Origin: a virus
Lineage: Duplodnaviria > Heunggongvirae > Uroviricota > Caudoviricetes
Length of the DNA: 19,434 bases
Direction: 5' to 3' (one strand)
Virus record (IMG/VR): IMGVR_UViG_2778261454_000002
Location: 1 to 19,434 of that record
Part shown: in pieces, positions 1 through 19,294 of the stretch
Layout: each line of letters starts with the position of its first letter
Position numbering within the stretch: position 1 is the stretch's first letter
Made by a program: the position numbers and the translations under genes
The notes under the pieces: model-generated
Told to the model about the DNA's origin: nothing
Database searches by the model: none
What the model saw: only the letters and a program-made list of their open reading frames with translations

Positions 1-96
1 ATCAACCAAACCAGCGCAATGCCTGAAAAAACTGACGTTCACTGGAGTGGTCGGTTTAGCGTTGCACCAATGCTCGATAGGATGTACCGTTTTTGA
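1..96 (+). pseudogene. dusA: 5' fragment of host tRNA-dihydrouridine synthase A gene, truncated by the prophage junction (window starts inside the ORF)
   Basis: Frame 1 from nt 1 reads INQTSAMPEKTDVHWSGRFSVAPMLD, which matches my recollection of the E. coli DusA N-terminus (...RFSVAPMLDWTDRHCRYF...). After the D codon at 76-78 it diverges (RMYRF) and stops at 94-96. Recalled from memory, not searched. Confidence 0.6.
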
Positions 97-221
97 AAAA
101 CAAGTAGTTATACACTTTGTGGGAGCCTATTGGGAACCCGGTGTTTTCATTTCAAGGTGTAATCCATGCGGGGCATCAGAATGAGATATAATGAGATTTT
201 TAGTGTTCCGCTTGAGAGTCT

Positions 222-5772: not shown

Positions 5773-5970
5773 ATGGGCGCTTTTGATAACCAGGAAATTA
5801 CGTTACCCGCATGCCCTAAGTGCGGCACTAAGACGAAGAAGAAAATCGCTTGGCTCAAGTCGAACAAAAGTTTCACTTGTCGATGTGGAGCTACTATCAA
5901 TGTCAACAGCAGCCAGCTTACTTCCGAAATCAGGAAGGTTGAGGACAAGCTGAAGAAGCTCTTTAAATAG
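5773..5970 (+). CDS. Small zinc-ribbon protein (CPKCG...CRCG), 65 aa
   Basis: Track ORF 5767..5970; ATG at 5773 sits about 7 nt after AGAGGGA; followed by a hairpin with T-run. Overlaps antisense with the 3' half of the minus ORF 5803..6168. Confidence 0.45.
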   Translation: MGAFDNQEITLPACPKCGTKTKKKIAWLKSNKSFTCRCGATINVNSSQLTSEIRKVEDKLKKLFK

Positions 5971-6509: not shown

Positions 6510-7196
6510 TTACCAAGTGCGCGATGACCAGAATACTCTACCTATAACGTGAATTCTTGAACGCCTATCTTCGAAGGTGAGTATTTCATCTGGATACTCA
6601 TCTTTATTGAAACTTCTTAGAATCAGACCACCGTCAGGTAAATTGATCAATATTTTAACTCTAAGTAATACGCCATCACGTATGGCATAAAGATCCCCAT
6701 CACGAATAGGAACCGTTTGGGAAACATCAACAGCAACAAAATCTCCATTGTTAAGTACAGGTAGTAAACTATTGCCCCAAATTTTTACGATCTTTGCATT
6801 GGAGACACATACACCAGCTTTTCTTAAATCAATCCTTCTTAGCGGGAACCAGTCTACAGTTGATTCAACTATTTCAGCCAAACATCCATTACCCGCTGAT
6901 AACTCGACATCTAGGACTGGAATGTTTGCAAAAATGTCAGGATCTAATGCTGTACTTTCAGCCTCCTTTACAACAAGGTCTGGGAAAGACGCGTTATCCT
7001 CAATGCCCAATTGCAACCACTTTTGAGAAACCCCTAACACTTTAGCAATCTCTTTAATTTTCCGAGGCTGTTGAGTTTCTCCATTCTCGATTTTCGCTAC
7101 GGATTGTTGTGAAAGCCCAATTTTTTCAGCTAGTTGCGCCTGACTCATTCCTGCTTTTTCTCTTTCGCTTTTTAGTCTTTCTGCCAATGTTTTCAC
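6510..7196 (-). CDS. cI: CI-type prophage repressor (N-terminal XRE HTH, C-terminal S24 LexA-like autopeptidase domain)
   Basis: 228 aa; HTH MSQAQLAEKIGLSQQSVAKIENG; C-terminal domain with Ser in IWGNSLLP and Lys in LLRVK. Divergent from cro; GTG start. Confidence 0.9.
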   Translation of the reverse strand: MKTLAERLKSEREKAGMSQAQLAEKIGLSQQSVAKIENGETQQPRKIKEIAKVLGVSQKWLQLGIEDNASFPDLVVKEAESTALDPDIFANIPVLDVELSAGNGCLAEIVESTVDWFPLRRIDLRKAGVCVSNAKIVKIWGNSLLPVLNNGDFVAVDVSQTVPIRDGDLYAIRDGVLLRVKILINLPDGGLILRSFNKDEYPDEILTFEDRRSRIHVIGRVFWSSRTW

Positions 7197-7199
7197 AAC

Positions 7200-7333
7200 A
7201 TATCCCCCTCGTTTTTATTGAGGTTACAACTTTATGTTTTAGCTTTCCAACATCTAAAAGTTGTGATAAAAGTTGTTGTAGTTGTATAATCGAAGTTATC
7301 AACAACTTTACTACTTACAGATAGGAGAAAGCT
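7200..7333. promoter_or_regulatory. OR-like operator cluster with PR (and presumably PRM)
   Basis: Repeated ACAACTTTA / TAAAAGTTGT and GTTGTTG / CAACAAC half-sites at about 7226-7238, 7254-7279 and 7299-7312. Plus-strand TATAAT at about 7285-7290 with TTGTGA about 18 nt upstream; AGGAGA RBS before cro ATG 7334. Confidence 0.6.
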
Positions 7334-7582
7334 ATGACACCTGAGCAATTAGCCTTATCAGAGGCAATCGCTCTGGCTGGTGGTCAATCAGAATTGGCTC
7401 GGAAGCTCACAGCCAGCAGTGGTCGTTTAGTAAAGCAACAACATGTCTGGAACTGGTTGAACAGAGAAAAGCGTCCCCCTGCAAAACTCTCGATATTTAT
7501 TGAAATGACCACTGGCGTATCAAAAGAAAAATTACGTCCAGATATTTTTCAAAAGATTAAAGACTTATCAGATGGAAAGTAA
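7334..7582 (+). CDS. cro: Cro-like HTH regulator (YdaS-like family)
   Basis: 82 aa; first gene rightward of OR, divergent from cI; HTH-like GGQSELARKL; YdaS-family resemblance is from memory. Confidence 0.7.
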   Translation: MTPEQLALSEAIALAGGQSELARKLTASSGRLVKQQHVWNWLNREKRPPAKLSIFIEMTTGVSKEKLRPDIFQKIKDLSDGK

Positions 7583-8156
7583 CCACAGTTTTAAGGAGAT
7601 AGCCGTGGGTAAGCATCACTGGAAAGTAGAAAAACAGCCTGAGTGGTACGTGAAAGCTGTCAGAAAAACTATCGCGGCGTTGCCGGGTGGTTACGCTGAA
7701 GCTGCTGACTGGCTGGATGTAACAGAGAACGCATTATTTAACCGCCTTCGTGCCGATGGCGATCAGATTTTCCCGCTGGGATGGGCAATGGTTTTGCAAC
7801 GTGCTGGTGGAACTCACTTCATTGCTGACGCTGTGGCGCAGTCTGCAAATGGCGTCTTTGTGTCTCTTCCTGACGTCGAGGATGTGGACAACGCCGATAT
7901 TAACAAGCGCCTGCTGGAAGTCATTGAACAGATTGGCAGTTATTCCAGACAGATTCGTTCGGCAATCGAAGACGGTGTGGTGGAACCGCATGAGAAGACA
8001 GCAATTAACGACGAGCTGTATCTCTCAATTTCGAAGCTGCAGGAGCATGCAGCACTGGTCTACAAAATCTTTTGCATTTCAGAAAGTAATGACGCCCGCG
8101 AGTGTGCAGCTCCGGGCGCCGTGGCGTGTCGTGACTGTGGAGAAACTAACGCATGA
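7572..8156 (+). CDS. CII/YdaT-like phage regulatory protein
   Basis: 194 aa directly after cro with an 11-nt overlap; position and size fit CII-type regulators (CP76/YdaT-like) of lambdoid prophages. Family assignment is from memory and uncertain. Confidence 0.55.
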
Positions 8157-8491
8157 ACAGTTTAACAACACACTACCGTCGCTCGCAACTGATTGCGCTT
8201 CCTGTACCGGGTGGAAAAGCGAAGGTGGAGTATTGCTATGCAGTTAATGTACCAGGTGACAGGGAAATTGTAACCCACAGCTTTGCTGAGTGGGCTGTGG
8301 GTGATTTCAACCGGCAGAAGGAGACAGTCCTTTGCGACAAGTTAACCGCTGGTTCAAAGATCACTACGGAGTGCCCGTCAGAGTCATTCGTTGGGAACCG
8401 GAAACACAACGGGTTATCTACCTCCGCGAAGGCTATGAGTATGAGTGCTTCAGCCCGCTCGAACAGTTTCGTCGTAAATTCAGGGAAATAG
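8153..8491 (+). CDS. Hypothetical protein; reading frame probably disrupted in its 3' half
   Basis: ATGA overlap with the upstream stop. N-terminal 60 aa look protein-like, but the C-terminal third is Ser-rich low complexity, while an overlapping Met-less frame (8305..8511) encodes a protein-like sequence. Confidence 0.4.
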
Positions 8492-8500
8492 AGGTCGGTC

Positions 8501-9136
8501 ATGAGCACTAAATTAACCGGCTATGTATGGGATGGTTGCGCAGCGTCAGGCATGAAATTATCCAGCGTGGCAATTATGGCCCGCCTGGCTGATTTCAGTA
8601 ATGACGAAGGTGTGTGCTGGCCATCAATTGAAACCATTGCCCGCCAGATTGGCGCGGGGATGAGTACCGTCAGAACGGCTATCGCACGGCTGGAAGCAGA
8701 AGGCTGGTTAACGCGTAAGGCGCGTCGCCAGGGTATCTGCATCATCGTCTGCCTGTCATGGGCTGTTAATCATTACCGTGATAACGCCATCGCCTATAAA
8801 GAACAGCGCGATAAAGCCACGTCTATCATCGCTGATATGCAGAAGCGTCAACGTGATGTAGCAGAACTTGACGCCAGATACACAAAGGAGCTTGCTGATG
8901 CTAATGCGACTATCGAAAGTCTCCGTGATGATGTTTCTGCTGGGCGTAAGCGCCTGCAAGTCGCCGCCACCTGTGCAAAGTCAACGACCGGAGCCAGCAG
9001 CATGGGCGATGGAGAAAGCCCAGGACTTACAGCAGATGCTGAACTCAATTATTACCGTCTCCGAAGTGGAATCGACAAGATAACCGCGCAGGTTAACTAC
9101 CTGCAGGAATACATCAGGACGCAATGCCTGAAATAA
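8501..9136 (+). CDS. Chimeric ORF: replication-initiator-like HTH N-terminal domain (about 78 aa) fused in frame to the C-terminal part of i-spanin Rz
   Basis: N-terminal [34 protein letters not shown] is an HTH typical of phage O-like initiators. From [19 protein letters not shown]... onward it is colinear with lambda Rz ([20 protein letters not shown]...[19 protein letters not shown]...LRDDVAAGRRRL...). Junction near nt 8735. Confidence 0.7.
8904..9083 (+). CDS. rz1: o-spanin Rz1 lipoprotein, embedded in the +1 frame of Rz
   Basis: Inside track ORF 8868..9083; [18 protein letters not shown] has a lipobox (LLGVSAC) followed by a Pro-rich segment ([16 protein letters not shown]), as in lambda Rz1. 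Start codon chosen by me. Confidence 0.7.
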
Positions 9137-9159
9137 TTTTTTTGCAAATCACAAAGTCA

Positions 9160-9235
9160 ATTTAATGAGCCTCGCGATGCGGGGCTTTTTGCAATAAATG
9201 CGTACCGCAACGCATGTTTTTTACACCGAACCTGC
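9160..9235 (+). terminator. Two tandem hairpin/T-run elements downstream of Rz
   Basis: AGCCTCGC-GAT-GCGGGGCT followed by TTTTT, and ATGCG-TACCGCAA-CGCAT followed by GTTTTTT. Coordinates approximate. Confidence 0.4.
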
Positions 9236-9337: not shown

Positions 9338-9835
9338 ATGAAATCATTAACCCTCTTCAATCAACCAATTCGTATCGGTGAAGATGGCATGATCTGCCTC
9401 ACTGATATGTGGAAAGCCAGTGGTAAAAGTGAATCTGAATCGCCTTACCACTACCTGCGAAACAAGCAGACCAAAGAGTTCTTAGCCGAGCTGGAGAAAA
9501 ACCACGAATCTGTGGTTTTTACTGAGCGCGGTGTACACGGTGGAACATATGGCGGGAAGTTTGTTGCTTACGATTATGCGGCTTGGTTAAACCCCGGGTT
9601 CAAGTACGCGGCCTATAAAGTCCTCGATGACTACTTCACAGGAGAACTTCAGCATCGCAACAGCTTAAGTGCGCAGCTCAACATGAAATGTCATGAGTTT
9701 GACCAGAAGAAAGACATGGCGAGTTTCTGCGGACAAGGGCTGGCGGCATGGCGCTATACGAAGCCAGTGTTGGTCGCTGAGATTAACTCCCTGGCTAACC
9801 AGCTGCAGATTACGATCCCCGGGCTTCCGGGATGA
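9338..9835 (+). CDS. KilA-N domain protein
   Basis: 165 aa; N-terminal pattern (FNQPIRIGEDGMICLTDMWKASGK...) matches the KilA-N DNA-binding domain as recalled. Confidence 0.65.
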   Translation: MKSLTLFNQPIRIGEDGMICLTDMWKASGKSESESPYHYLRNKQTKEFLAELEKNHESVVFTERGVHGGTYGGKFVAYDYAAWLNPGFKYAAYKVLDDYFTGELQHRNSLSAQLNMKCHEFDQKKDMASFCGQGLAAWRYTKPVLVAEINSLANQLQITIPGLPG

Positions 9836-10183: not shown

Positions 10184-10342
10184 ATGACTTTAGCTGAACG
10201 TGTAAAGAGAATTGAGAGCGAATTAAAAGACATTAAATCGCAACTCAATTCTGGTACCGATTCTAGGAAAACAGCAAAAGCAATGCCCTTATCCAGTCTT
10301 GCAAAAGAGGGAGGTATCCCTGGGGGGTTAGTTAAAAAATGT
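10184..10342 (+). CDS. Small hypothetical protein (52 aa)
   Basis: Not in the track; AAGAGG RBS 6 nt upstream of ATG; predicted MTLAERVKRIESELKDIKSQLNSGTDSRKTAKAMPLSSLAKEGGIPGGLVKKC; its 3' end overlaps the convergent protease gene. Confidence 0.3.
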
Positions 10343-10792
10343 TAACTCAAATACTTGATTGGAAAAATCCATCGTAAGGGCGCCCATTTTAATTAGTTGC
10401 ATTCCGAAAACGACTTGGAATTTTCTCCCGTTACTTACCAATGGCACTGAAGTCAATTCTGTTGAAAAAACTCTTTCGTCCTCAGTGAACGATATTACCG
10501 CATGCCGAACTGTAGTTTCTATTGTTGAGGTGGCTCCGCTCACAGTTGTTTTTTCCGCGATTGGGAGTTTTAAATCGTCAGCAAAGTCTGAATCCACATA
10601 GCAAAGATCTGCTCCGGTATCTATAAGTGCGTAGGCACCAGCCTTCAATCCATTTGGTTTATAAACGTTTATATCTTTTGAGCTACTTGGCCATACTGTC
10701 AATGGAACTACGGGAATTGCATGCTCCGTGGGGGTATCTGATACCGATCCATCAATAGGGGAAATAAACTTGATTTTTACTTTGGTGATCAT
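10328..10792 (-). CDS. Retropepsin-like (clan AA) aspartic protease
   Basis: 154 aa; catalytic-type motif ALIDTGADLCYVD (D-T-G-A) and C-terminal GMQLIKMGALTMDF resembling the retropepsin dimerisation strand; AAGGA RBS. AT-rich, opposite orientation to its neighbours, with its own upstream intergenic region. Confidence 0.65.
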   Translation of the reverse strand: MITKVKIKFISPIDGSVSDTPTEHAIPVVPLTVWPSSSKDINVYKPNGLKAGAYALIDTGADLCYVDSDFADDLKLPIAEKTTVSGATSTIETTVRHAVISFTEDERVFSTELTSVPLVSNGRKFQVVFGMQLIKMGALTMDFSNQVFELTFFN

Positions 10793-11886: not shown

Positions 11887-12393
11887 ATGGCCGTGCTATT
11901 GAATAAATCTGATATGGCTTCCTCGCTGGGAATATCCGTCCAGGCCTTTGATAAATGGGGTGTCCAGCCAGTAGAAAAGAGAGGGCGAGAAGTCTTCTTT
12001 GACGTTCGTTCAGTCGTTGATAACCGCATCGAACACCAGAGTCGAAAACTACAACCATCGCCGGGAGAAGACGATGATAGTGTCAATATTGATTATGAAC
12101 GTTGGCGTTTAACTCGTGCTAATGCGGATGCGGCTGAGCTGGCCAATGAGAAAAAGCGTCGCGAGGTCGTAGAGACTGCGTTTTGTACCTTCGTGTTATC
12201 CAGAATTGCCGCTGAAATATCCAGTATTCTGGATGGCATACCCCTTTCGATGCAGCGCCGGTTCCCTGAGCTGGAAAATCGGCATATCGAGTTCCTGAAA
12301 GGGGACGTAATAAAGGCAATGAATAAGGCTGCGGCGCTGGATGAACGGATTCCGGGGTTGTTGAATGATTATATCGACCAGTCAGGTAGCTAA
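11887..12393 (+). CDS. Nu1: Terminase small subunit Nu1
   Basis: 168 aa; C-terminal two-thirds almost identical to lambda Nu1 (VVETAFCTFVLSRIA.EI.SILDG.PLS.QRRFPELENRH..FLK...IKAMNKAAALDE.IPGLL); GAGGGA RBS. Confidence 0.9.
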   Translation: MAVLLNKSDMASSLGISVQAFDKWGVQPVEKRGREVFFDVRSVVDNRIEHQSRKLQPSPGEDDDSVNIDYERWRLTRANADAAELANEKKRREVVETAFCTFVLSRIAAEISSILDGIPLSMQRRFPELENRHIEFLKGDVIKAMNKAAALDERIPGLLNDYIDQSGS

Positions 12394-14287
12394 TCTGCGA
12401 ACAGCGGTAAAAGCTGGTCTGAAATCACTATACCGCCCGGAACCCATGACAGCTGTCGAATGGGCCGATGCGCATTATTACCTTCCGAAGGAATCCGCTT
12501 ATCAGGAAGGGCGCTGGGAAACATTGCCATTTCAGCGCGCGATCATGAATGCGATGGGCAGCGACTATATTCGCATTGTTAACGTAATTAAGTCGGCGCG
12601 AGTAGGCTATTCGAAAATGCTACTCGGCGTCATTGCTTATTTCATCGAGCACAAACAACGTAATGAGTTGCTGTGGCTGCCGACCGACGGCGACGCAGAT
12701 AATTTCATGAAGTCACACGTTGAACCTACGATCCGTGATGTTCCCTCGCTGTTATCACTTGCTCCCTGGTATGGGAAAAAGCACAGGGATAACACGCTGT
12801 CGATGAAGCGATTTACCAATGGCCGTGGCTTCTGGTGCCTGGGTGGTAAATCGGCTAAGAACTATCGTGAAAAATCAGTCGATGTCGTTGGATACGATGA
12901 GCTGGCTGCGTTTGACGCTGATATTGAGAAAGAGGGTTCGCCGACCTTCCTGGGGGATAAGCGTATCGAGGGTTCTGTTTGGCCCAAATCCATACGCGGT
13001 TCGACACCGAAATTGCGTGGAACGTGTCAGATTGAGCGGGCAGCAAAAGAGTCCGGACATTTTATGCGATTTCATGTCGCATGTCCGCACTGTGGTGAAG
13101 AGCAGTATCTTAAATTTGGTGACCGGGATACGCCTTTCGGCTTCAAATGGGAGCCTGAGCAGGCCGAAACGGTCTACTACCTCTGCGAGCATAATGCTTG
13201 TGTCATTAAGCAACATGAACTGGACTTTTCCAACGCTCGTTATATCTGCGAATTGACCGGAATATGGACGCGCGACGGGCTTCGCTGGTTCTCATCGTCT
13301 AATGCTGAAATTGATCCACCTGAAAGCGTAACTTTCCACATCTGGACAGCTTATAGCCCGTTTACCACTTGGGTACAGATAGTTAAAGACTGGTTCAAAA
13401 CGAAAGGCGACACGGGTAAACGCAAGACATTTGTGAACACCACCCTGGGCGAAACGTGGGAAGCGAAAATCGGTGATCGCCCCGATGCAGACGTTTTAGC
13501 AGAGCGTAAAGAGCACTTTGATGCTGCAGTACCTGAGCGAGTGGCGTATCTGACAGCGGGGATTGACTCCCAGCTCGACCGTTACGAAATGCGTGTGTGG
13601 GGATGGGGGCCGGGTGAGGAAAGCTGGCTTATCGACAGGCAAATCATCATGGGTCGCCATGATGATGAGTCAACGCTTGCCCGTGTGGATGAGGCGATTA
13701 ACAAGACATATAAACGCCGGAACGGCGTAGAAATGTTTATATCCCGTATCTGCTGGGATATCGGTGGTATTGACCCCACTATCGTTTACAACCGCTCGAA
13801 AAAACACGGTCTGTTTCGTGTGATCCCGATAAAGGGTGCGTCGGTTTATGGAAAGCCGGTGGCGAACATGCCCCGCAAACGCAACAAAAACGGTGTTTAT
13901 CTGACAGAAGTGGGTACTGATACCGCGAAAGAGCAGATTTATAACCGCTTCACGCTGACCGTTGAAGGTGATGAGCCTCTGGCCGGTGCCGTTCACTTCC
14001 CCAATAACCCCGATATTTATGATCTTTCAGAGGCGCAGCAGCTGACCGCCGAAGAACTGGTCGAAAAGTGGGTTGATGGTAAGAGAAAAATCATATGGGA
14101 CAGCAAAAAAAGGCGAAATGAGGCTCTCGACTGCTTTGTTTACGCACTGGCGGCGCTTCGTATCAGCATATCCCGCTGGCAGCTTAACCTTGATTCACTT
14201 CTTGCCAGCCTGCTGGAGGAAGAAGGCACCCGTAACAATAACAAGACCCTGGCGGATTACGCGCGGGCATTGTCTGGAGAGGAATAA
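12365..14287 (+). CDS. A: Terminase large subunit A
   Basis: 640 aa versus 641 in lambda; high identity along the full length (for example [40 protein letters not shown]); overlaps Nu1 as in lambda. Confidence 0.95.
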
Positions 14288-14493
14288 TGGCAACACAGAC
14301 TGAACTGGATGCCGCGCGCGCTGCGTTACATGACCTGATGATGGGGAAACGAGTGGCGACGGTACAGAAAGATGGCCGAAGAGTGGAATTTACAGCTACC
14401 TCAGTTACCGATCTCAAAAAGTATATTGCTGACCTTGAATCTCAGGTTGGTACCACATCACGACGCCAGGGGCCTGCAAGGTTTTACGTATGA
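14287..14493 (+). CDS. W: Head-tail joining protein W
   Basis: 68 aa, near-identical to lambda gpW ([41 protein letters not shown]). Confidence 0.9.
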
Positions 14494-16082
14494 AAATACC
14501 ATCTTTAGTGGGTCCTGACGGGAAAACATCCCTTCGGGAATACGCGGGGTATCATGGCGGCGGCGGAGGGTTTGGTGGTCAGTTGCGGGGCTGGAATCCA
14601 CCAAGCGAAAGTGCTGATGCGGCTCTTCTGCCTAACTTCTCGCGCGGAAATGCCCGTGCTGACGATCTGGTCAGAAATAATGGCTATGCGGCAAACGCCG
14701 TGCAGCTCCACCAGGACCACATCGTCGGGTCATTTTTCAGACTCAGCTATCGACCGAGCTGGCGCTATCTTGGCATCAATGAGGAGGATTCACGCGCATT
14801 TTCGCGGGATGTAGAAGCCGCCTGGAACGAGTATGCCGAGGATGATTTTTGCGGGATTGATGCTGAGCGCAAGCGAACCTTTACGATGATGATCCGTGAA
14901 GGTGTGGCCATGCATGCGTTTAACGGTGAATTATGCATGCAGGCGACCTGGGACAGCGATTCAACGCGTCTTTTCCGTACTCAGTTCAAAATGGTCAGTC
15001 CGAAGCGCGTCAGTAATCCAAACAATATCGGTGATACCCGGAACTGTCGCGCTGGGGTAAAAATCAATAACAGTGGTGCTGCGCTGGGATATTACGTCAG
15101 CGACGACGGATACCCCGGCTGGATGTCACAGAACTGGACCTATATTCCGCGCGAGCTTCCTGGTGGCCGCCCCTCGTTTATCCATGTATTCGAACCGATG
15201 GAGGATGGACAGACCCGTGGGGCTAATGCGTTTTACAGCGTGATGGAGCAGATGAAAATGCTCGATACCCTGCAAAACACCCAGCTCCAGAGCGCTATCG
15301 TAAAGGCCATGTATGCAGCCACCATCGAGAGTGAACTGGATACCCAATCGGCGATGGATTTTATCCTCGGTGCGGATAATAAAGAGCAGCAGAGCAAACT
15401 GACAGGCTGGCTCGGCGAAATGGCAGCCTATTACTCCGCTGCGCCGGTTCGCCTGGGCGGGGCAAGGGTCCCACACCTGTTGCCGGGGGATTCTCTTAAC
15501 CTTCAGTCGGCGCAGGATACCGATAACGGCTATTCAACGTTCGAACAATCCCTGCTGCGTTATATTGCTGCAGGGCTGGGTGTGTCGTATGAGCAGCTTT
15601 CACGAAACTATTCGCAGATGAGCTACTCGACCGCACGCGCAAGTGCTAACGAGTCCTGGGTGTACTTTATGGGGCGTCGCAAGTTTGTTGCGTCCCGACA
15701 GGCCTGCCAGATGTTTCTTTGCTGGCTGGAAGAAGCGATTGCCAGAAGGGTGGTCACGCTTCCTTCGAAAGCCCGTTTCAGTTTCCAGGAGGCTCGAACA
15801 GCATGGGGGAACGCCAGCTGGATTGGCTCTGGCCGAATGGCTATTGACGGGCTGAAAGAGGTGCAGGAAGCCGTCATGCTTATTGAGGCTGGTCTCAGCA
15901 CGTATGAGAAAGAGTGCGCCAAACGCGGTGATGATTATCAGGAGATTTTTGCCCAGCAGGTCCGGGAAACAATGGAGCGTCGTGCTGCGGGTCTGAAACC
16001 ACCGGCATGGGCCGCTGCCGCTTTTGAGGCTGGACTGAAAAAATCAAACGAGGAGGAGCAAGATGGCGCACGAGCTGCGTAA
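14490..16082 (+). CDS. B: Portal protein B
   Basis: 530 aa versus 533 in lambda; very high identity ([54 protein letters not shown]). Confidence 0.95.
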
Positions 16083-17406
16083 TCTTCCGCATATCGCCAG
16101 TATGGCCTTTAATGAGCCGCTGATGCTTGAACCCGCCTACGCGCGGGTTTTCTTTTGTGCCTTAGCTGGTCAGCTGGGCATCACCCGGCTGACAGATACC
16201 GTCTCTGGCATCACGCTTGACGCCGGACAAATAGCCGAACCGCTGGCGCTGTTTGGTGAAGATGATGACATGGATACCCGACCATCGCGAAGCTATCAGG
16301 TGGCAAATGGCATCGCGGTCTTGCCGGTTTCCGGCACTCTGGTGAGTAAAACCCGTGCGCTGCAGCCTTATTCCGGGATGACGGGTTACAACGGGATCAT
16401 CGCTCGCCTGCAGCAGGCCATCAGTGACCCCGGCGTCGACGGCATTCTACTGGACATGGATACGCCGGGTGGCATGGTGTCCGGGGCGTTTGACTGCGCC
16501 GACATTATTGCCCGTATGCGCGATATCAAACCCATCTGGGCGCTGGCCAATGACATGAACTGCAGTGCAGGTCAGCTTATAGCCAGTTCGGCATCGCGAC
16601 GGCTGGTCACACAAACGGCCAGAACCGGCTCCATTGGGGTCATGATGGCGCACAGTAACTATGGCGCTGCGCTCAAAACTAACGGCGTTGAGGTCACGCT
16701 GATTTACAGCGGCGATCGCAAGGTCGACGGCAACCCTTACGAAAAGCTTCCGAAAGATGTGCGTGCTGATTTCCAGACGCGTATCGATGCCACTCGTCAG
16801 ATGTTTGCCGAAAAGGTTTCCGCTTATACCGGCATGTCTGTTCAGGACGTGCTGGACACCGAAGCGGCAGTATTCTCCGGCCAGGAATCTTTGGATAACG
16901 GGCTGGCGGATGAACTTGTTAACAATACCGATGCGCTCGGCGTGATGCGCGAAGCACTCGACAGACGCAAAAAAACAACCCTTGGAGGAACTATGCCATC
17001 ACCTTCTGCATCAGCTGTGACCACTAAGCCAGTTGACCAGGCAGCAACTCAGACAACTGCATCAGCTGAACAGGCCACTACCGTTGACACGACAATTGCT
17101 TCCGTAGCAGCCCCTGTAGATGTCAGTGCGCAGGTTACTGCAGCAGTAGCTGCAGAGAATAGTCGCATCATGGGCATCCTAAACTGCGACGAGGCTAAAG
17201 GGCGTGAGTCACAGGCGCGAGCACTGGCCGAAACGCCGGGTATGACGGTAGAGAGCGCACAGCGCATTCTGGCTGCTGCACCGCAAAGTGCCCAGACGCG
17301 TACCGATACGGCGCTGGATCGTTTGATGGAAACAGCACCCGGTGCACTCCCAGCAGGTAGCGCATCTTCTGATGCCGCTGACGATTTGTTAAACACCCCC
17401 GTTTAA
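16063..17406 (+). CDS. C: Head maturation protease C (S49/ClpP-like), presumably with in-frame internal scaffold Nu3
   Basis: 447 aa; colinear with lambda C ([37 protein letters not shown]...). The Ala/Thr/Ser-rich linker and conserved C-terminus match the lambda C/Nu3 arrangement. Confidence 0.9.
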   Translation: MAHELRNLPHIASMAFNEPLMLEPAYARVFFCALAGQLGITRLTDTVSGITLDAGQIAEPLALFGEDDDMDTRPSRSYQVANGIAVLPVSGTLVSKTRALQPYSGMTGYNGIIARLQQAISDPGVDGILLDMDTPGGMVSGAFDCADIIARMRDIKPIWALANDMNCSAGQLIASSASRRLVTQTARTGSIGVMMAHSNYGAALKTNGVEVTLIYSGDRKVDGNPYEKLPKDVRADFQTRIDATRQMFAEKVSAYTGMSVQDVLDTEAAVFSGQESLDNGLADELVNNTDALGVMREALDRRKKTTLGGTMPSPSASAVTTKPVDQAATQTTASAEQATTVDTTIASVAAPVDVSAQVTAAVAAENSRIMGILNCDEAKGRESQARALAETPGMTVESAQRILAAAPQSAQTRTDTALDRLMETAPGALPAGSASSDAADDLLNTPV

Positions 17407-17415
17407 GAGGCTATC

Positions 17416-17748
17416 ATGGCAATTACTGAAGTTTTCACACATAACCAGCCGCTCGGTAACAGCGACCCGGCGCACACTGCGTATGGTCCTGGCGAACTGA
17501 CAGCTTCCACTCCAGCCATGACGCCGCTCATGCTGGATGCCACTTCTGGCAAGCTGGCCGTCTGGGATGGTGCTCATGCTGGCGCGGCAATGGGCATCCT
17601 GGCTGTAACCGCAGACCAGAACAGCGCGGAACTGGCATTTTACAAATCTGGCTCTTTCCGTATTGAAGATGTCCTCTGGCCATCTGCCGTCACCGACGAC
17701 AACATTAAACGTAACGCGTTCGCCGGTACTGCAATCAGCATCGTTTAA
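17416..17748 (+). CDS. D: Head decoration protein D
   Basis: 110 aa, same length as lambda gpD, high identity ([27 protein letters not shown]....KL..WDG...GAA.GILAV.ADQ). Confidence 0.9.
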
Positions 17749-17777
17749 TCCGCATTTCTACAACCATCATCATTCAT

Positions 17778-17803
17778 AAAAGCCGCCTGCGCGGCTTTTT
17801 TTA
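17778..17803 (+). terminator. Hairpin with T-run between D and E (possible attenuator or mRNA stabiliser)
   Basis: AGCCGC-CTGC-GCGGCT followed by TTTTTTT, 13 nt before the E start codon. Confidence 0.4.
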
Positions 17804-17815
17804 CGGGAAATATCT

Positions 17816-18841
17816 ATGTCCGTTTACACCACTGCCCAGCTGCTGGCGGTCAATGAGAAGAAATTCAAATTCGATCCGCTTTTCCTGCGTATCTTTTTCC
17901 GCGAAACCTATCCCTTCAGTACAGAGAAGGTTTACCTGTCGCAAATTCCTGGCCTGGTCAATATGGCGCTTTACGTCTCGCCGATTGTCTCCGGCAAAGT
18001 GATCCGCTCCCGTGGCGGCAGCACGTCTGAATTCACGCCAGGTTATGTGAAGCCGAAACACGAAGTTAACCCACTGATGACTCTCCGCCGCCTGCCGGAT
18101 GAGGATCCGCAGAATCTCGCTGACCCGGTCTATCGCCGTCGCCGCATCATCCTTCAGAACATGAAGGATGAAGAGCTGGCGATTGCTCAGGTCGAAGAGA
18201 AACAGGCTGTTTCGGCGGTGCTCAGCGGTAAATACACCATGACCGGGGAAGCGTTCGAGCCTGTTGAAGTCGATATGGGTCGCAGCGCTGGTAACAACAT
18301 TGTCCAGGCAGGTGCGGCTGCATGGTCAACCCGCGACAAAGAAACGTATGACCCGACCGATGACATTGAAGCGTACGCGCTTAATGCCAGCGGTGTGATC
18401 AACATCATTGTGTTCGATCCGAAGGGCTGGGCGCTGTTCCGTTCCTTCAAGTCTGTTGAGAAGAAACTGGACACCCGTCGGGGTTCTAACTCAGAGCTGG
18501 AAACTGCCGTGAAAGACCTGGGTATGGCTGTTTCATACAAGGGTATGTATGGCGATGTGGCCATCGTGGTGTACTCCGGCCAGTACGTCGAAAATGATGT
18601 CAAAAAGAACTATCTGCCGGATCTGACGATGGTTCTGGGTAATACACAGGCCCGTGGCCTCCGTACCTATGGCTGCATTCTTGATGCTGATGCCCAGCGC
18701 GAAGGTATCAATGCCTCGACACGCTACCCGAAAAACTGGGTGCAGTCGGGGGATCCGGCGCGCGAATTCACCATGATTCAGTCAGCTCCGCTGATGCTGC
18801 TGCCAGACCCTGACGCATTCGTCTCCGTCAAACTGGCATAA
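17816..18841 (+). CDS. E: Major capsid protein E
   Basis: 341 aa, same length as lambda gpE, and near-identical (YTTAQLLA.NE.KFKFDPLFLR.FFRE.YPF.TEKVYLSQIPGLVNMALYVSPIVSG.VIRSRGGSTSEFTPGYVKPKHEVNP). Confidence 0.95.
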   Translation: MSVYTTAQLLAVNEKKFKFDPLFLRIFFRETYPFSTEKVYLSQIPGLVNMALYVSPIVSGKVIRSRGGSTSEFTPGYVKPKHEVNPLMTLRRLPDEDPQNLADPVYRRRRIILQNMKDEELAIAQVEEKQAVSAVLSGKYTMTGEAFEPVEVDMGRSAGNNIVQAGAAAWSTRDKETYDPTDDIEAYALNASGVINIIVFDPKGWALFRSFKSVEKKLDTRRGSNSELETAVKDLGMAVSYKGMYGDVAIVVYSGQYVENDVKKNYLPDLTMVLGNTQARGLRTYGCILDADAQREGINASTRYPKNWVQSGDPAREFTMIQSAPLMLLPDPDAFVSVKLA

Positions 18842-18886
18842 CTTCCCCCAGTGGCCCTGTCGGGCCACCTTTCTGGAGTATTTCCC

Positions 18887-19294
18887 ATGACAGAAAAAGA
18901 AAAGCTGGTCGCCCGCCTGAATGAACTTGGGACCCAGCTTAACCGCGAGGTCAGTTCCAGCGGCACCATTCAGGAACTAACGATGCGTATTGCTGAGCTT
19001 GAAGAGGAGCTGGATGGAGACGCCATCTCGGTTGACGGTAAAAACGGCGTGCAGAATGCTTCCGACAGCACCGACAGCACCGACAGCAATGTTGCTAACG
19101 TGGCAAAAGTAAAAACGGAATCGGCCACAACGGGTGACCTGGTATCAGTAGAAACGCTGGCCACCCTGCATATTGACGCTCTGCATGCCACGCGTAACGA
19201 ACCGGTATCCATCGTAGAGCCTGGTGTGATTATCCGCGTATCTGAACAGGATGCCGACGACTTGATCGCAAAGGGGCTGGCTTTCGAAGTCTGA
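18887..19294 (+). CDS. FI: DNA packaging protein FI
   Basis: Track ORF 18851..19294; start trimmed to MTEKEKLVARLNELGTQLNREV, which aligns with lambda FI MTKDELIARLRSLGEQLNRDV; conserved C-terminal HIDALHATRNEPV. Confidence 0.8.
   Translation: MTEKEKLVARLNELGTQLNREVSSSGTIQELTMRIAELEEELDGDAISVDGKNGVQNASDSTDSTDSNVANVAKVKTESATTGDLVSVETLATLHIDALHATRNEPVSIVEPGVIIRVSEQDADDLIAKGLAFEV

Follow-up and report, generated by a model that had tools for sequence, protein, structure and literature searches.

An in-frame O-Rz chimera in an Escherichia coli lambdoid prophage and the recurrent TA site at its left break

How can one open reading frame (ORF) begin as a phage replication initiator and end as a lysis protein? 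The question is raised by positions 8501..9136 of virus record IMGVR_UViG_2778261454_000002, which corresponds to the whole 19,434-bp contig NODD01000048.1 of draft assembly GCA_002518125.1 and is called here the window. A single frame of 211 amino acids (aa) is open across the interval. We consider that this ORF is very probably a chimeric pseudogene, the product of a single internal deletion that took about 7-8 kb out of an Escherichia coli lambdoid prophage integrated at dusA, and that the left break of the deletion fell on a TA dinucleotide of gene O at which other prophages have also been broken.

The fusion and the interval it replaced

The first 78 codons (8501..8735, plus strand) are a fragment, O', of a replication initiator of the e14/SfII type, a winged helix-turn-helix (HTH) protein. 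They are identical at all 78 residues to the O-family protein of Shigella phage SfII (BLASTP), the alignment holds at the DNA level, and Pfam places an HTH_36 domain at residues 23-70 (E 1.6e-11). The remainder (8735..9136, plus strand) comprises codons 13-145 and the stop of the i-spanin gene Rz. Here residues 79-211 match residues 13-145 of the intact 145-aa Rz of E. coli KTa005 at 132 of 133 positions (BLASTP), and Phage_lysis/Rz (PF03245) covers residues 100-209 (E 4e-35; profile positions 13-125 of 126). A sequence-only reading of the locus had divided the ORF in the same way, into an O-like HTH over the first 78 or so codons and a stretch colinear with Rz, and both assignments are confirmed. 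The sole residue that differs from intact Rz is an R-to-G change in ESPGLTAD (Rz codon 109, window 9004 region), a stretch that doubles as coding sequence of Rz1.

The o-spanin gene Rz1 itself lies intact in the +1 frame at 8898..9083 (plus strand), again as had been read. The +1-frame ORF of 8868..9083 matches Pfam Rz1 (PF06085, E 4e-20), and its probable start is the ATG at 8898, seven bases past AAGGAG. The embedding, the lipobox (LGVSAC) and the proline-rich stretch of the mature part are those of an o-spanin. In this the locus resembles lambda Rz/Rz1, as it does in its typical Rz periplasmic domain (the 133 C-terminal residues). Unlike in lambda Rz, the membrane anchor of the fusion is cut to 11 hydrophobic residues of roughly 19, and these sit not at the N-terminus but behind a 78-aa domain ending in RKARRQG. 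Nor does the gene stand downstream of a holin and an endolysin, neither domain being present in any called gene of the contig.

What could such a protein do? It would consist of a cytoplasmic winged-helix domain, then a hydrophobic segment of half the usual length, then the periplasmic coiled coil of Rz. As the 11-residue hydrophobic stretch is too short for a signal-anchor, the periplasmic domain of Rz is not expected to leave the cell interior, and Rz1 would be without its partner. Of the initiator, the N-terminal winged-helix DNA-binding domain is present, and both the iteron array (the probable origin) and the C-terminal domain are gone from the window. The protein would be useless as an initiator and as an i-spanin, and, judged by its sequence, the fusion is a functional member of neither the Rz family nor the initiator family. 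What it does display are the marks of a chimeric pseudogene: the halves are nearly identical to separate, complete genes that lie kilobases apart in intact relatives, and there is little homology at the junction.

Megablast located the join; of the 5426 complete E. coli genomes and 50,697 phage records searched, none crosses it. Matches of the O type (ymfL-ymfM-O of e14, SfII and SfIV, about 97-99% identity) stop at window 8735-8741, and those to Rz and the following KilA-N gene (Stx and PhiR49-type phages, 97-99.5% identity) begin at 8731-8734. At the crossover, marked here by a slash, the O parent reads ...CCAGGGTA/ACCGC (in longer context, ...CGCCAGGGTA/ACCGCAATG) and the Rz parent ...CTGGTTA/TCTGC (...CTCTGGTTA/TCTGCATC); the window runs ...CGCCAGGGTATCTGCATC across the join. 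The only bases common to both parents (O GGGTA/ACC; Rz GGTTA/TCT) are the TA of 8734..8735 on the plus strand. The junction at 8734/8735 thus falls within 8730-8740, where the deletion endpoint had been predicted. On the left this TA is nt 234-235 of O (GGGTAACC), and on the right it lies at Rz codons 12-13. The reading frame is kept across the join, codon 78 (GGT) being followed by Rz codon 13 (ATC), and its preservation is a matter of chance.

The usual content of the gap can be read from intact relatives. SfII has about 7.4 kb from O nt 234 to Rz codon 13, occupied by the remainder of O, by PerC, Dam, a LexA-like gene, RusA, KilA-N, a 990-bp gene and Q, and further by two reverse-strand genes, holin S and lysin R. 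Over the whole window the best relative is found in E. coli O68:H12 strain 97.3. Its prophage shares the left arm (dusA fragment, RdgC, ClpX-zinc-finger gene, CI, Cro and YmfL) and the lambda-type Nu1-A-W-B-C-D-E-FI genes, and in between carries about 8 kb with the order O-PerC-Dam-LexA-like-RusA-KilA-N-DUF968-Q-...-methyltransferase-holin-lysozyme-spanin. None of these intervening functions is encoded anywhere in the window, as judged from its ORFs and the domains of its called genes. Between the cII-like gene and ymfM homologue on one side and Rz on the other, no further ORF carries a domain of the replication, nin, Q, holin or endolysin kind. The missing nin, Q, holin and endolysin genes had been pointed out from the sequence, together with the lack of a second replication gene. 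That last absence is real but carries no information, since phages of the e14/SfII type have no separate P-like gene even when intact. The single deletion that had been proposed, with its ends inside the initiator gene and just inside Rz, is upheld by the identities of the flanks (on the left 98-99% to e14/SfII-type O genes as far as the join), the 2-bp overlap and the roughly 8 kb present in intact 97.3.

The deletion welded the TA of O nt 234-235 to the TA at Rz codons 12-13. Measured against intact relatives, it cost O its iteron linker (the probable origin) and C-terminal domain and Rz its first 12 codons; the PerC/Dam/RusA/KilA-N/DUF968 region, Q and its late promoter, the holin and the endolysin went entirely. 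The intact O gene runs for 235 further codons past the breakpoint and carries CCGTCAAAATCTGAC-type iteron-like repeats and their variants at nt 300-430, an array that is probably the origin. At L002:9635-9830 the iteron-like repeats are encoded in a low-complexity linker of the intact O protein. Given the genes lost and established lambdoid biology, the prophage should be unable to replicate, to switch on Q-dependent late transcription or to lyse.

The Rac prophage of K-12 had been offered as a parallel, and in part it is one. Rac is a defective prophage with an Rz pseudogene: its ydaW-rzpR-rzoR region, like the window, has a deletion into Rz, an intact embedded Rz1-type gene, and no remaining Q, holin or endolysin. 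The likeness ends there. The product of ydaW is a DUF1627/HTH protein and not an initiator, the replication genes ydaU/ydaV are intact, and rzpR, a different, lambda-type allele of Rz, lacks its first ~110 bp (roughly 35-40 codons) and forms no in-frame fusion. The closest K-12 parallel is instead ymfN (oweE::aaaE) of e14, annotated 'chimeric replication protein/phage terminase'. It has the same 78-codon (234-nt) O fragment with ymfL-ymfM upstream, its breakpoint lies within 1 nt of the present one, and it too is an in-frame product of an internal prophage deletion. It differs in its right partner, which is the large terminase gene (GGT/GATGG, with a 3-bp GGT overlap). In consequence e14 has also lost Rz and part of its packaging module, whereas the window keeps Rz1 and the complete head genes. 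By these likenesses the fusion is one of the chimeric pseudogenes that deletions leave in cryptic lambdoid prophages, and e14 ymfN is its nearest relative.

A recurrent breakpoint in the O gene

By itself the fusion is a correct but ordinary finding, a case of ordinary prophage decay in one strain: one more decayed prophage that has kept immunity, an SOS-inducible division inhibitor and head genes. It is also an entry point, as one dinucleotide is the place of the cut in oweE and oweS, textbook pseudogenes of K-12, and in many other defective prophages.

A first survey looked in IMG/VR for copies of the 29 nt that lie left of the site and sorted them by what came next. It gave 109 intact loci and three junction types inside the next 8 nt. 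Later scans left out the intact continuation; IMG/VR and metagenomes then gave further types, and complete E. coli genomes added two junctions, in 23CRST035 and in K-12 CPS-53. Altogether about 23 distinct junctions from these sources lie within GGGTAACCG(C), within 10 nt of O nt 234. About 18 of them retain the left side of O and 5 the right. The loci include window 8734-8735, L004:7404, L127:4000, L001:3634, L128:6234 and about 18 others, and both K-12 e14 oweE and, as its mirror image, CPS-53 oweS are among the junctions. Three matched controls, placed at O nt 100, 275 and 550, gave zero junctions. Over the other 700 nt of the gene, the 125 loci gave a single internal breakpoint (L024, nt 617).

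The junctions agree not only in neighborhood but nearly to the base. Among the left-retaining products 17 of 18 keep ...GGGTA or more, e14 alone ending at GGGT, and all five right-retaining products (CPS-53 oweS, L139, L140, L142 and L143), which discard the N-terminal domain, begin TAACC. In the complete genome PEC41 the identical O fragment is joined upstream of a holin (GGGTA/TCCATTGG). In CPS-53 (KpLE1), oweS/yfdO is the same O gene broken at the same TA (...CTCATCA/TAACCGCAATG); unlike in the window, the C-terminal 709 nt are kept (nt 234-942), and the N-terminal HTH and the immunity region are lost. We found no description of this shared breakpoint in the literature searched on oweE, oweS, ymfN and prophage deletion hot spots, which did not include the 2004 e14 analysis; others may have noticed the e14/CPS-53 coincidence earlier.

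Two observations concern the surroundings of the site. An iteron-like core of 10 nt (ATGCGTCGAA) begins 8 nt to its right, and GCGTCG lies 8-13 nt to its left. At L132, one of the left-retaining junctions (about position 5935 on the reverse strand), the end of an element resembling the IS3 family of insertion sequences (IS) (TGAGGTAGCCTGAGTTTAACGGACAC...) adjoins O at nt 243, and the hot spot is nine bases away.

If the left endpoint is so constant, are the partners constant as well? Unrearranged partner sequence was recovered from other loci for 15 hot-spot junctions, and in 13 of these TA stands exactly at the crossover, the exceptions being e14 (GGT overlap) and L133 (AA). The base preferences around it were tabulated for 17 distinct TA-crossover sites, namely 14 hot-spot partners, O nt 180, O nt 617 and the second Rz site. 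G occurs at -2 in 11 of the 17 (p 6e-4) and C at +2 in 15 (p 7e-8). The resulting motif, GNTANC, is often extended to CCGGA-TA or TA-TCCGG, a palindromic preference in the flanks. It is present on the discarded flank of the partner sites too, and this would not be expected if a single broken end simply annealed. Of three GNTANC sites in the O gene (nt 180, 209 and 234), two are observed breakpoints. Over the 8.1 kb from O to Rz in SfII, GGNTANCC is found four times, two of the occurrences being the O hot spot and a site inside rusA, CCGGATAACCGG (L002:12007, in SfII-type phages). Two independent deletions, L124 and L024, end on the right at the rusA-internal site, which closely resembles the O hot spot; their left endpoints are at O nt 242 and O nt 617.

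Rz is likewise entered repeatedly at its beginning. For proteins, 8000 word-sharing candidates were scored from a collection of 5.8 billion. Most Rz homologues among the 120 best matches listed are about 145-152 aa long and have no HTH domain, and HTH_36 is combined with Phage_lysis in only two of the 8000 scored entries. One is the present locus with a later start codon (186 aa; WP_274539297.1 in nr); apart from that record, the exact protein occurs on this contig alone. The other, P0002 (198 aa, from a Logan assembly), is an independent O'::Rz fusion that joins O nt 180 (GGCTA/TCGC) to Rz (GCGATTA/TCTC), that is, O aa 62 to Rz aa 9. The different junction of P0002 indicates that the pairing of HTH_36 with Rz is a recurrent accident and not a family. 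The Rz site GATTA/TCTC has been used in three independent fusions (O'::Rz P0002, NinX::Rz P0005 and unknown::Rz P0014); the window used GGTTA/TCTG. An R::Rz fusion, P0012, appears from its protein sequence to use a TGC overlap instead, and the TA rule is for this reason strong but not absolute. These four independent fusions all enter the first 15 codons of Rz in frame; they stand at L156:881-1477, L157:3001-3696 and L158:3001-3618 and in protein P0012.

Since the left break lies on a recurrent TA site, the deletion most likely began there as a sequence-preferring break or strand exchange, and the broken O site would then have been joined to the similar TA site in Rz. Such products could arise if similar sites were cut with a stagger, or exchanged strands, around the TA and were then joined cohesively; the overhang would be of 2 nt (TA) or 4 nt (NTAN), with outer mismatches trimmed. 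Whether O nt 234-235 (GGG-TA-ACC) is an undescribed sequence-specific recombination hot spot, which has truncated prophages of its family again and again and at which a site-preferring nuclease, topoisomerase or recombinase, and not random breakage with microhomology repair, exchanges TA between GNTANC- or GGNTANCC-like sites in both partners by staggered cleavage or strand transfer, is a more speculative proposition, which we put forward tentatively and on the doubtful side of even.

As agents, a type II topoisomerase, a restriction-type or phage-encoded nuclease, and fork arrest near the origin followed by template switching are candidates only. Intact phages of the e14/SfII type encode RusA and a DUF968 protein, both candidate nucleases. 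Gyrase cleaves with a 4-nt stagger. Deletion hot spots at arrested forks or at topoisomerase or nuclease sites, such as terB-associated deletions and gyrase-mediated illegitimate recombination, are like the present one in having one fixed endpoint, many variable ones and 2-6 shared bp; unlike them, the junctions described here have a TA-centered GNTANC motif in both partners, and both sides of the site act as endpoints.

Several other candidates were considered and set aside. A hairpin or cruciform is not indicated, the 101-nt DNA at the hot spot folding no better than its shuffles (z -0.10). A pseudo-site for a Pin/Gin-type invertase would require flanks like those of pix or gix; they are unlike them, and there is no 26-bp crossover of the AAACC-NN-GGTTT type. 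A true pix site does lie about 100 nt from the 23CRST035 junction, the one next to pinE. As to a mobile-element insertion site, no locus has the two halves of O standing apart; only L132 has an IS-like end, and O does not resume within 3.2 kb of it. IS30, which makes 2-bp duplications, would leave a copy of the IS in its products, and none is present. A GGTNACC (BstEII-type) site is present in the hot spot, but as the sole cause of the breaks it fails: the partners do not have it, and right-retaining junctions never keep the G that such a cut predicts. Nicking by the initiator itself finds no nuclease domain in Pfam to perform it, the protein being of the winged-HTH/DnaD_N-like kind with an iteron-coded linker.

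If an enzyme does make such exchanges, its activity would rank among the major forces that domesticate prophages in E. coli. Were the cuts due to a specific activity, inactivation of enterobacterial prophages would be partly sequence-programmed and predictable, and could be tested with a 30-bp site.

Competing accounts of the locus

It is unlikely, on our assessment, that the breakpoint reflects selection, the N-terminal domain of O, alone or in this fusion, having been kept as useful in its own right, for example as a dominant-negative iteron binder against superinfecting e14/SfII-type phages. The 78-codon fragment does persist in many defective prophages, that of K-12 e14 included, and it is still found downstream of an SOS-controlled pR operon. 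Selection cannot, however, yield the precision of a single dinucleotide. Moreover, the same TA ends the five rearrangements that throw the N-terminal domain away, and partner sites bear the motif on the flank that was lost.

A two-step origin is suggested by the longest identity near the join, the 8-nt GTAACCGC, which occurs at O nt 233-240 and again at Rz codons 4-6, 25 nt upstream of the Rz breakpoint. Recombination there would be out of frame, and a subsequent 25-nt deletion between GGTA and GGTTA would have to restore the frame. The intermediate predicted, ...CAGGGTAACCGCGATTATCTC..., was not found; no selection for an open frame is known here, and a single TA-to-TA event suffices and matches at least 13 other junctions. 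We regard two steps as highly improbable.

Could the join be an artifact, two prophages of the strain having been merged in assembly? The contig, 19.4 kb of a draft, and the families of both halves, which are multi-copy in most E. coli genomes, would allow it. The overlap of 2 bp and the longest nearby identity of 8 nt are, however, far below any assembler k-mer, and the in-frame join falls exactly on the TA hot spot of finished genomes (e14, CPS-53, PEC41 and 23CRST035). Gene order on either side is colinear with intact 97.3, and the nr protein record has the same fusion. We give an assembly chimera hardly any weight. That HTH-Rz is a natural two-domain family with a function of its own, which would have undone the sequence-only reading, is scarcely credible in spite of an open frame in which both domains score well in Pfam, as among the 8000 candidates scored only this locus and P0002, with its different junction, combine them and each half is 99-100% identical to a separate complete gene.

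A single deletion from the TA of O to the TA of Rz is thus the account that we prefer. Some points weigh against it. The join is known from a short-read draft contig, and the tail genes and the other attachment site lie beyond the contig, where a displaced Q and lysis cassette is conceivable. That the fusion protein and the prophage no longer function is predicted from their sequences. As to the hot spot, microhomology-driven repair of a break whose position was fixed by another cause is also possible.

The rest of the prophage

The left end of the prophage (1..221) aligns by megablast with the dusA-fragment/attachment region of 97.3. Window base 1 corresponds to base 501 of that locus, inside an annotated partial tRNA-dihydrouridine synthase (dusA) fragment, so the window probably starts at the prophage attachment site.

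The immunity genes are kept. A CI-type repressor with HTH_3 and Peptidase_S24 domains (6510..7196, minus strand), whose homologues are annotated as LexA family protein or CI, faces a Cro-like regulator (7334..7582, plus strand; Pfam YdaS_toxin/HTH, E 3.6e-14). Upstream of cro a promoter scan gives a pR-like sigma-70 match (7261..7290, plus strand; 10/12 matches, a consensus match only). There follow, on the plus strand, a YmfL/CII-like regulator (Phage_CP76; 7572..8156; Pfam E 1.5e-13) and a YmfM homologue (8153..8491) that is identical to K-12 e14 YmfM at 109 of 112 residues (97%). The e14 YmfM is an SOS-inducible cell-division inhibitor (bioRxiv 10.1101/2020.11.19.390815). The ymfM homologue immediately precedes the fusion and remains subject to the CI/pR-type control region.

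To the right of the fusion, two terminator-like hairpins with T runs lie downstream of Rz (9114..9215, plus strand; consensus matches only). The KilA-N/ORF11CD3 gene (9338..9835, plus strand; Pfam) is the normal follower of Rz in the right-hand parent and is colinear with KTa005 and Stx phages. The lambda-type packaging and head genes Nu1, A, W, portal B, protease C, D, E and FI (11887..19294, plus strand) have open frames, by Pfam and in the gene order of 97.3, so that both the CI and the head genes are kept as had been supposed. The late genes are now downstream of the early right operon, with the two hairpins after Rz in between.

Between the KilA-N gene and Nu1, finally, a 154-aa ORF on the minus strand (10328-10792) has a weak match to Asp_protease_2 (E 1e-5); this retropepsin-like ORF may be a moron.

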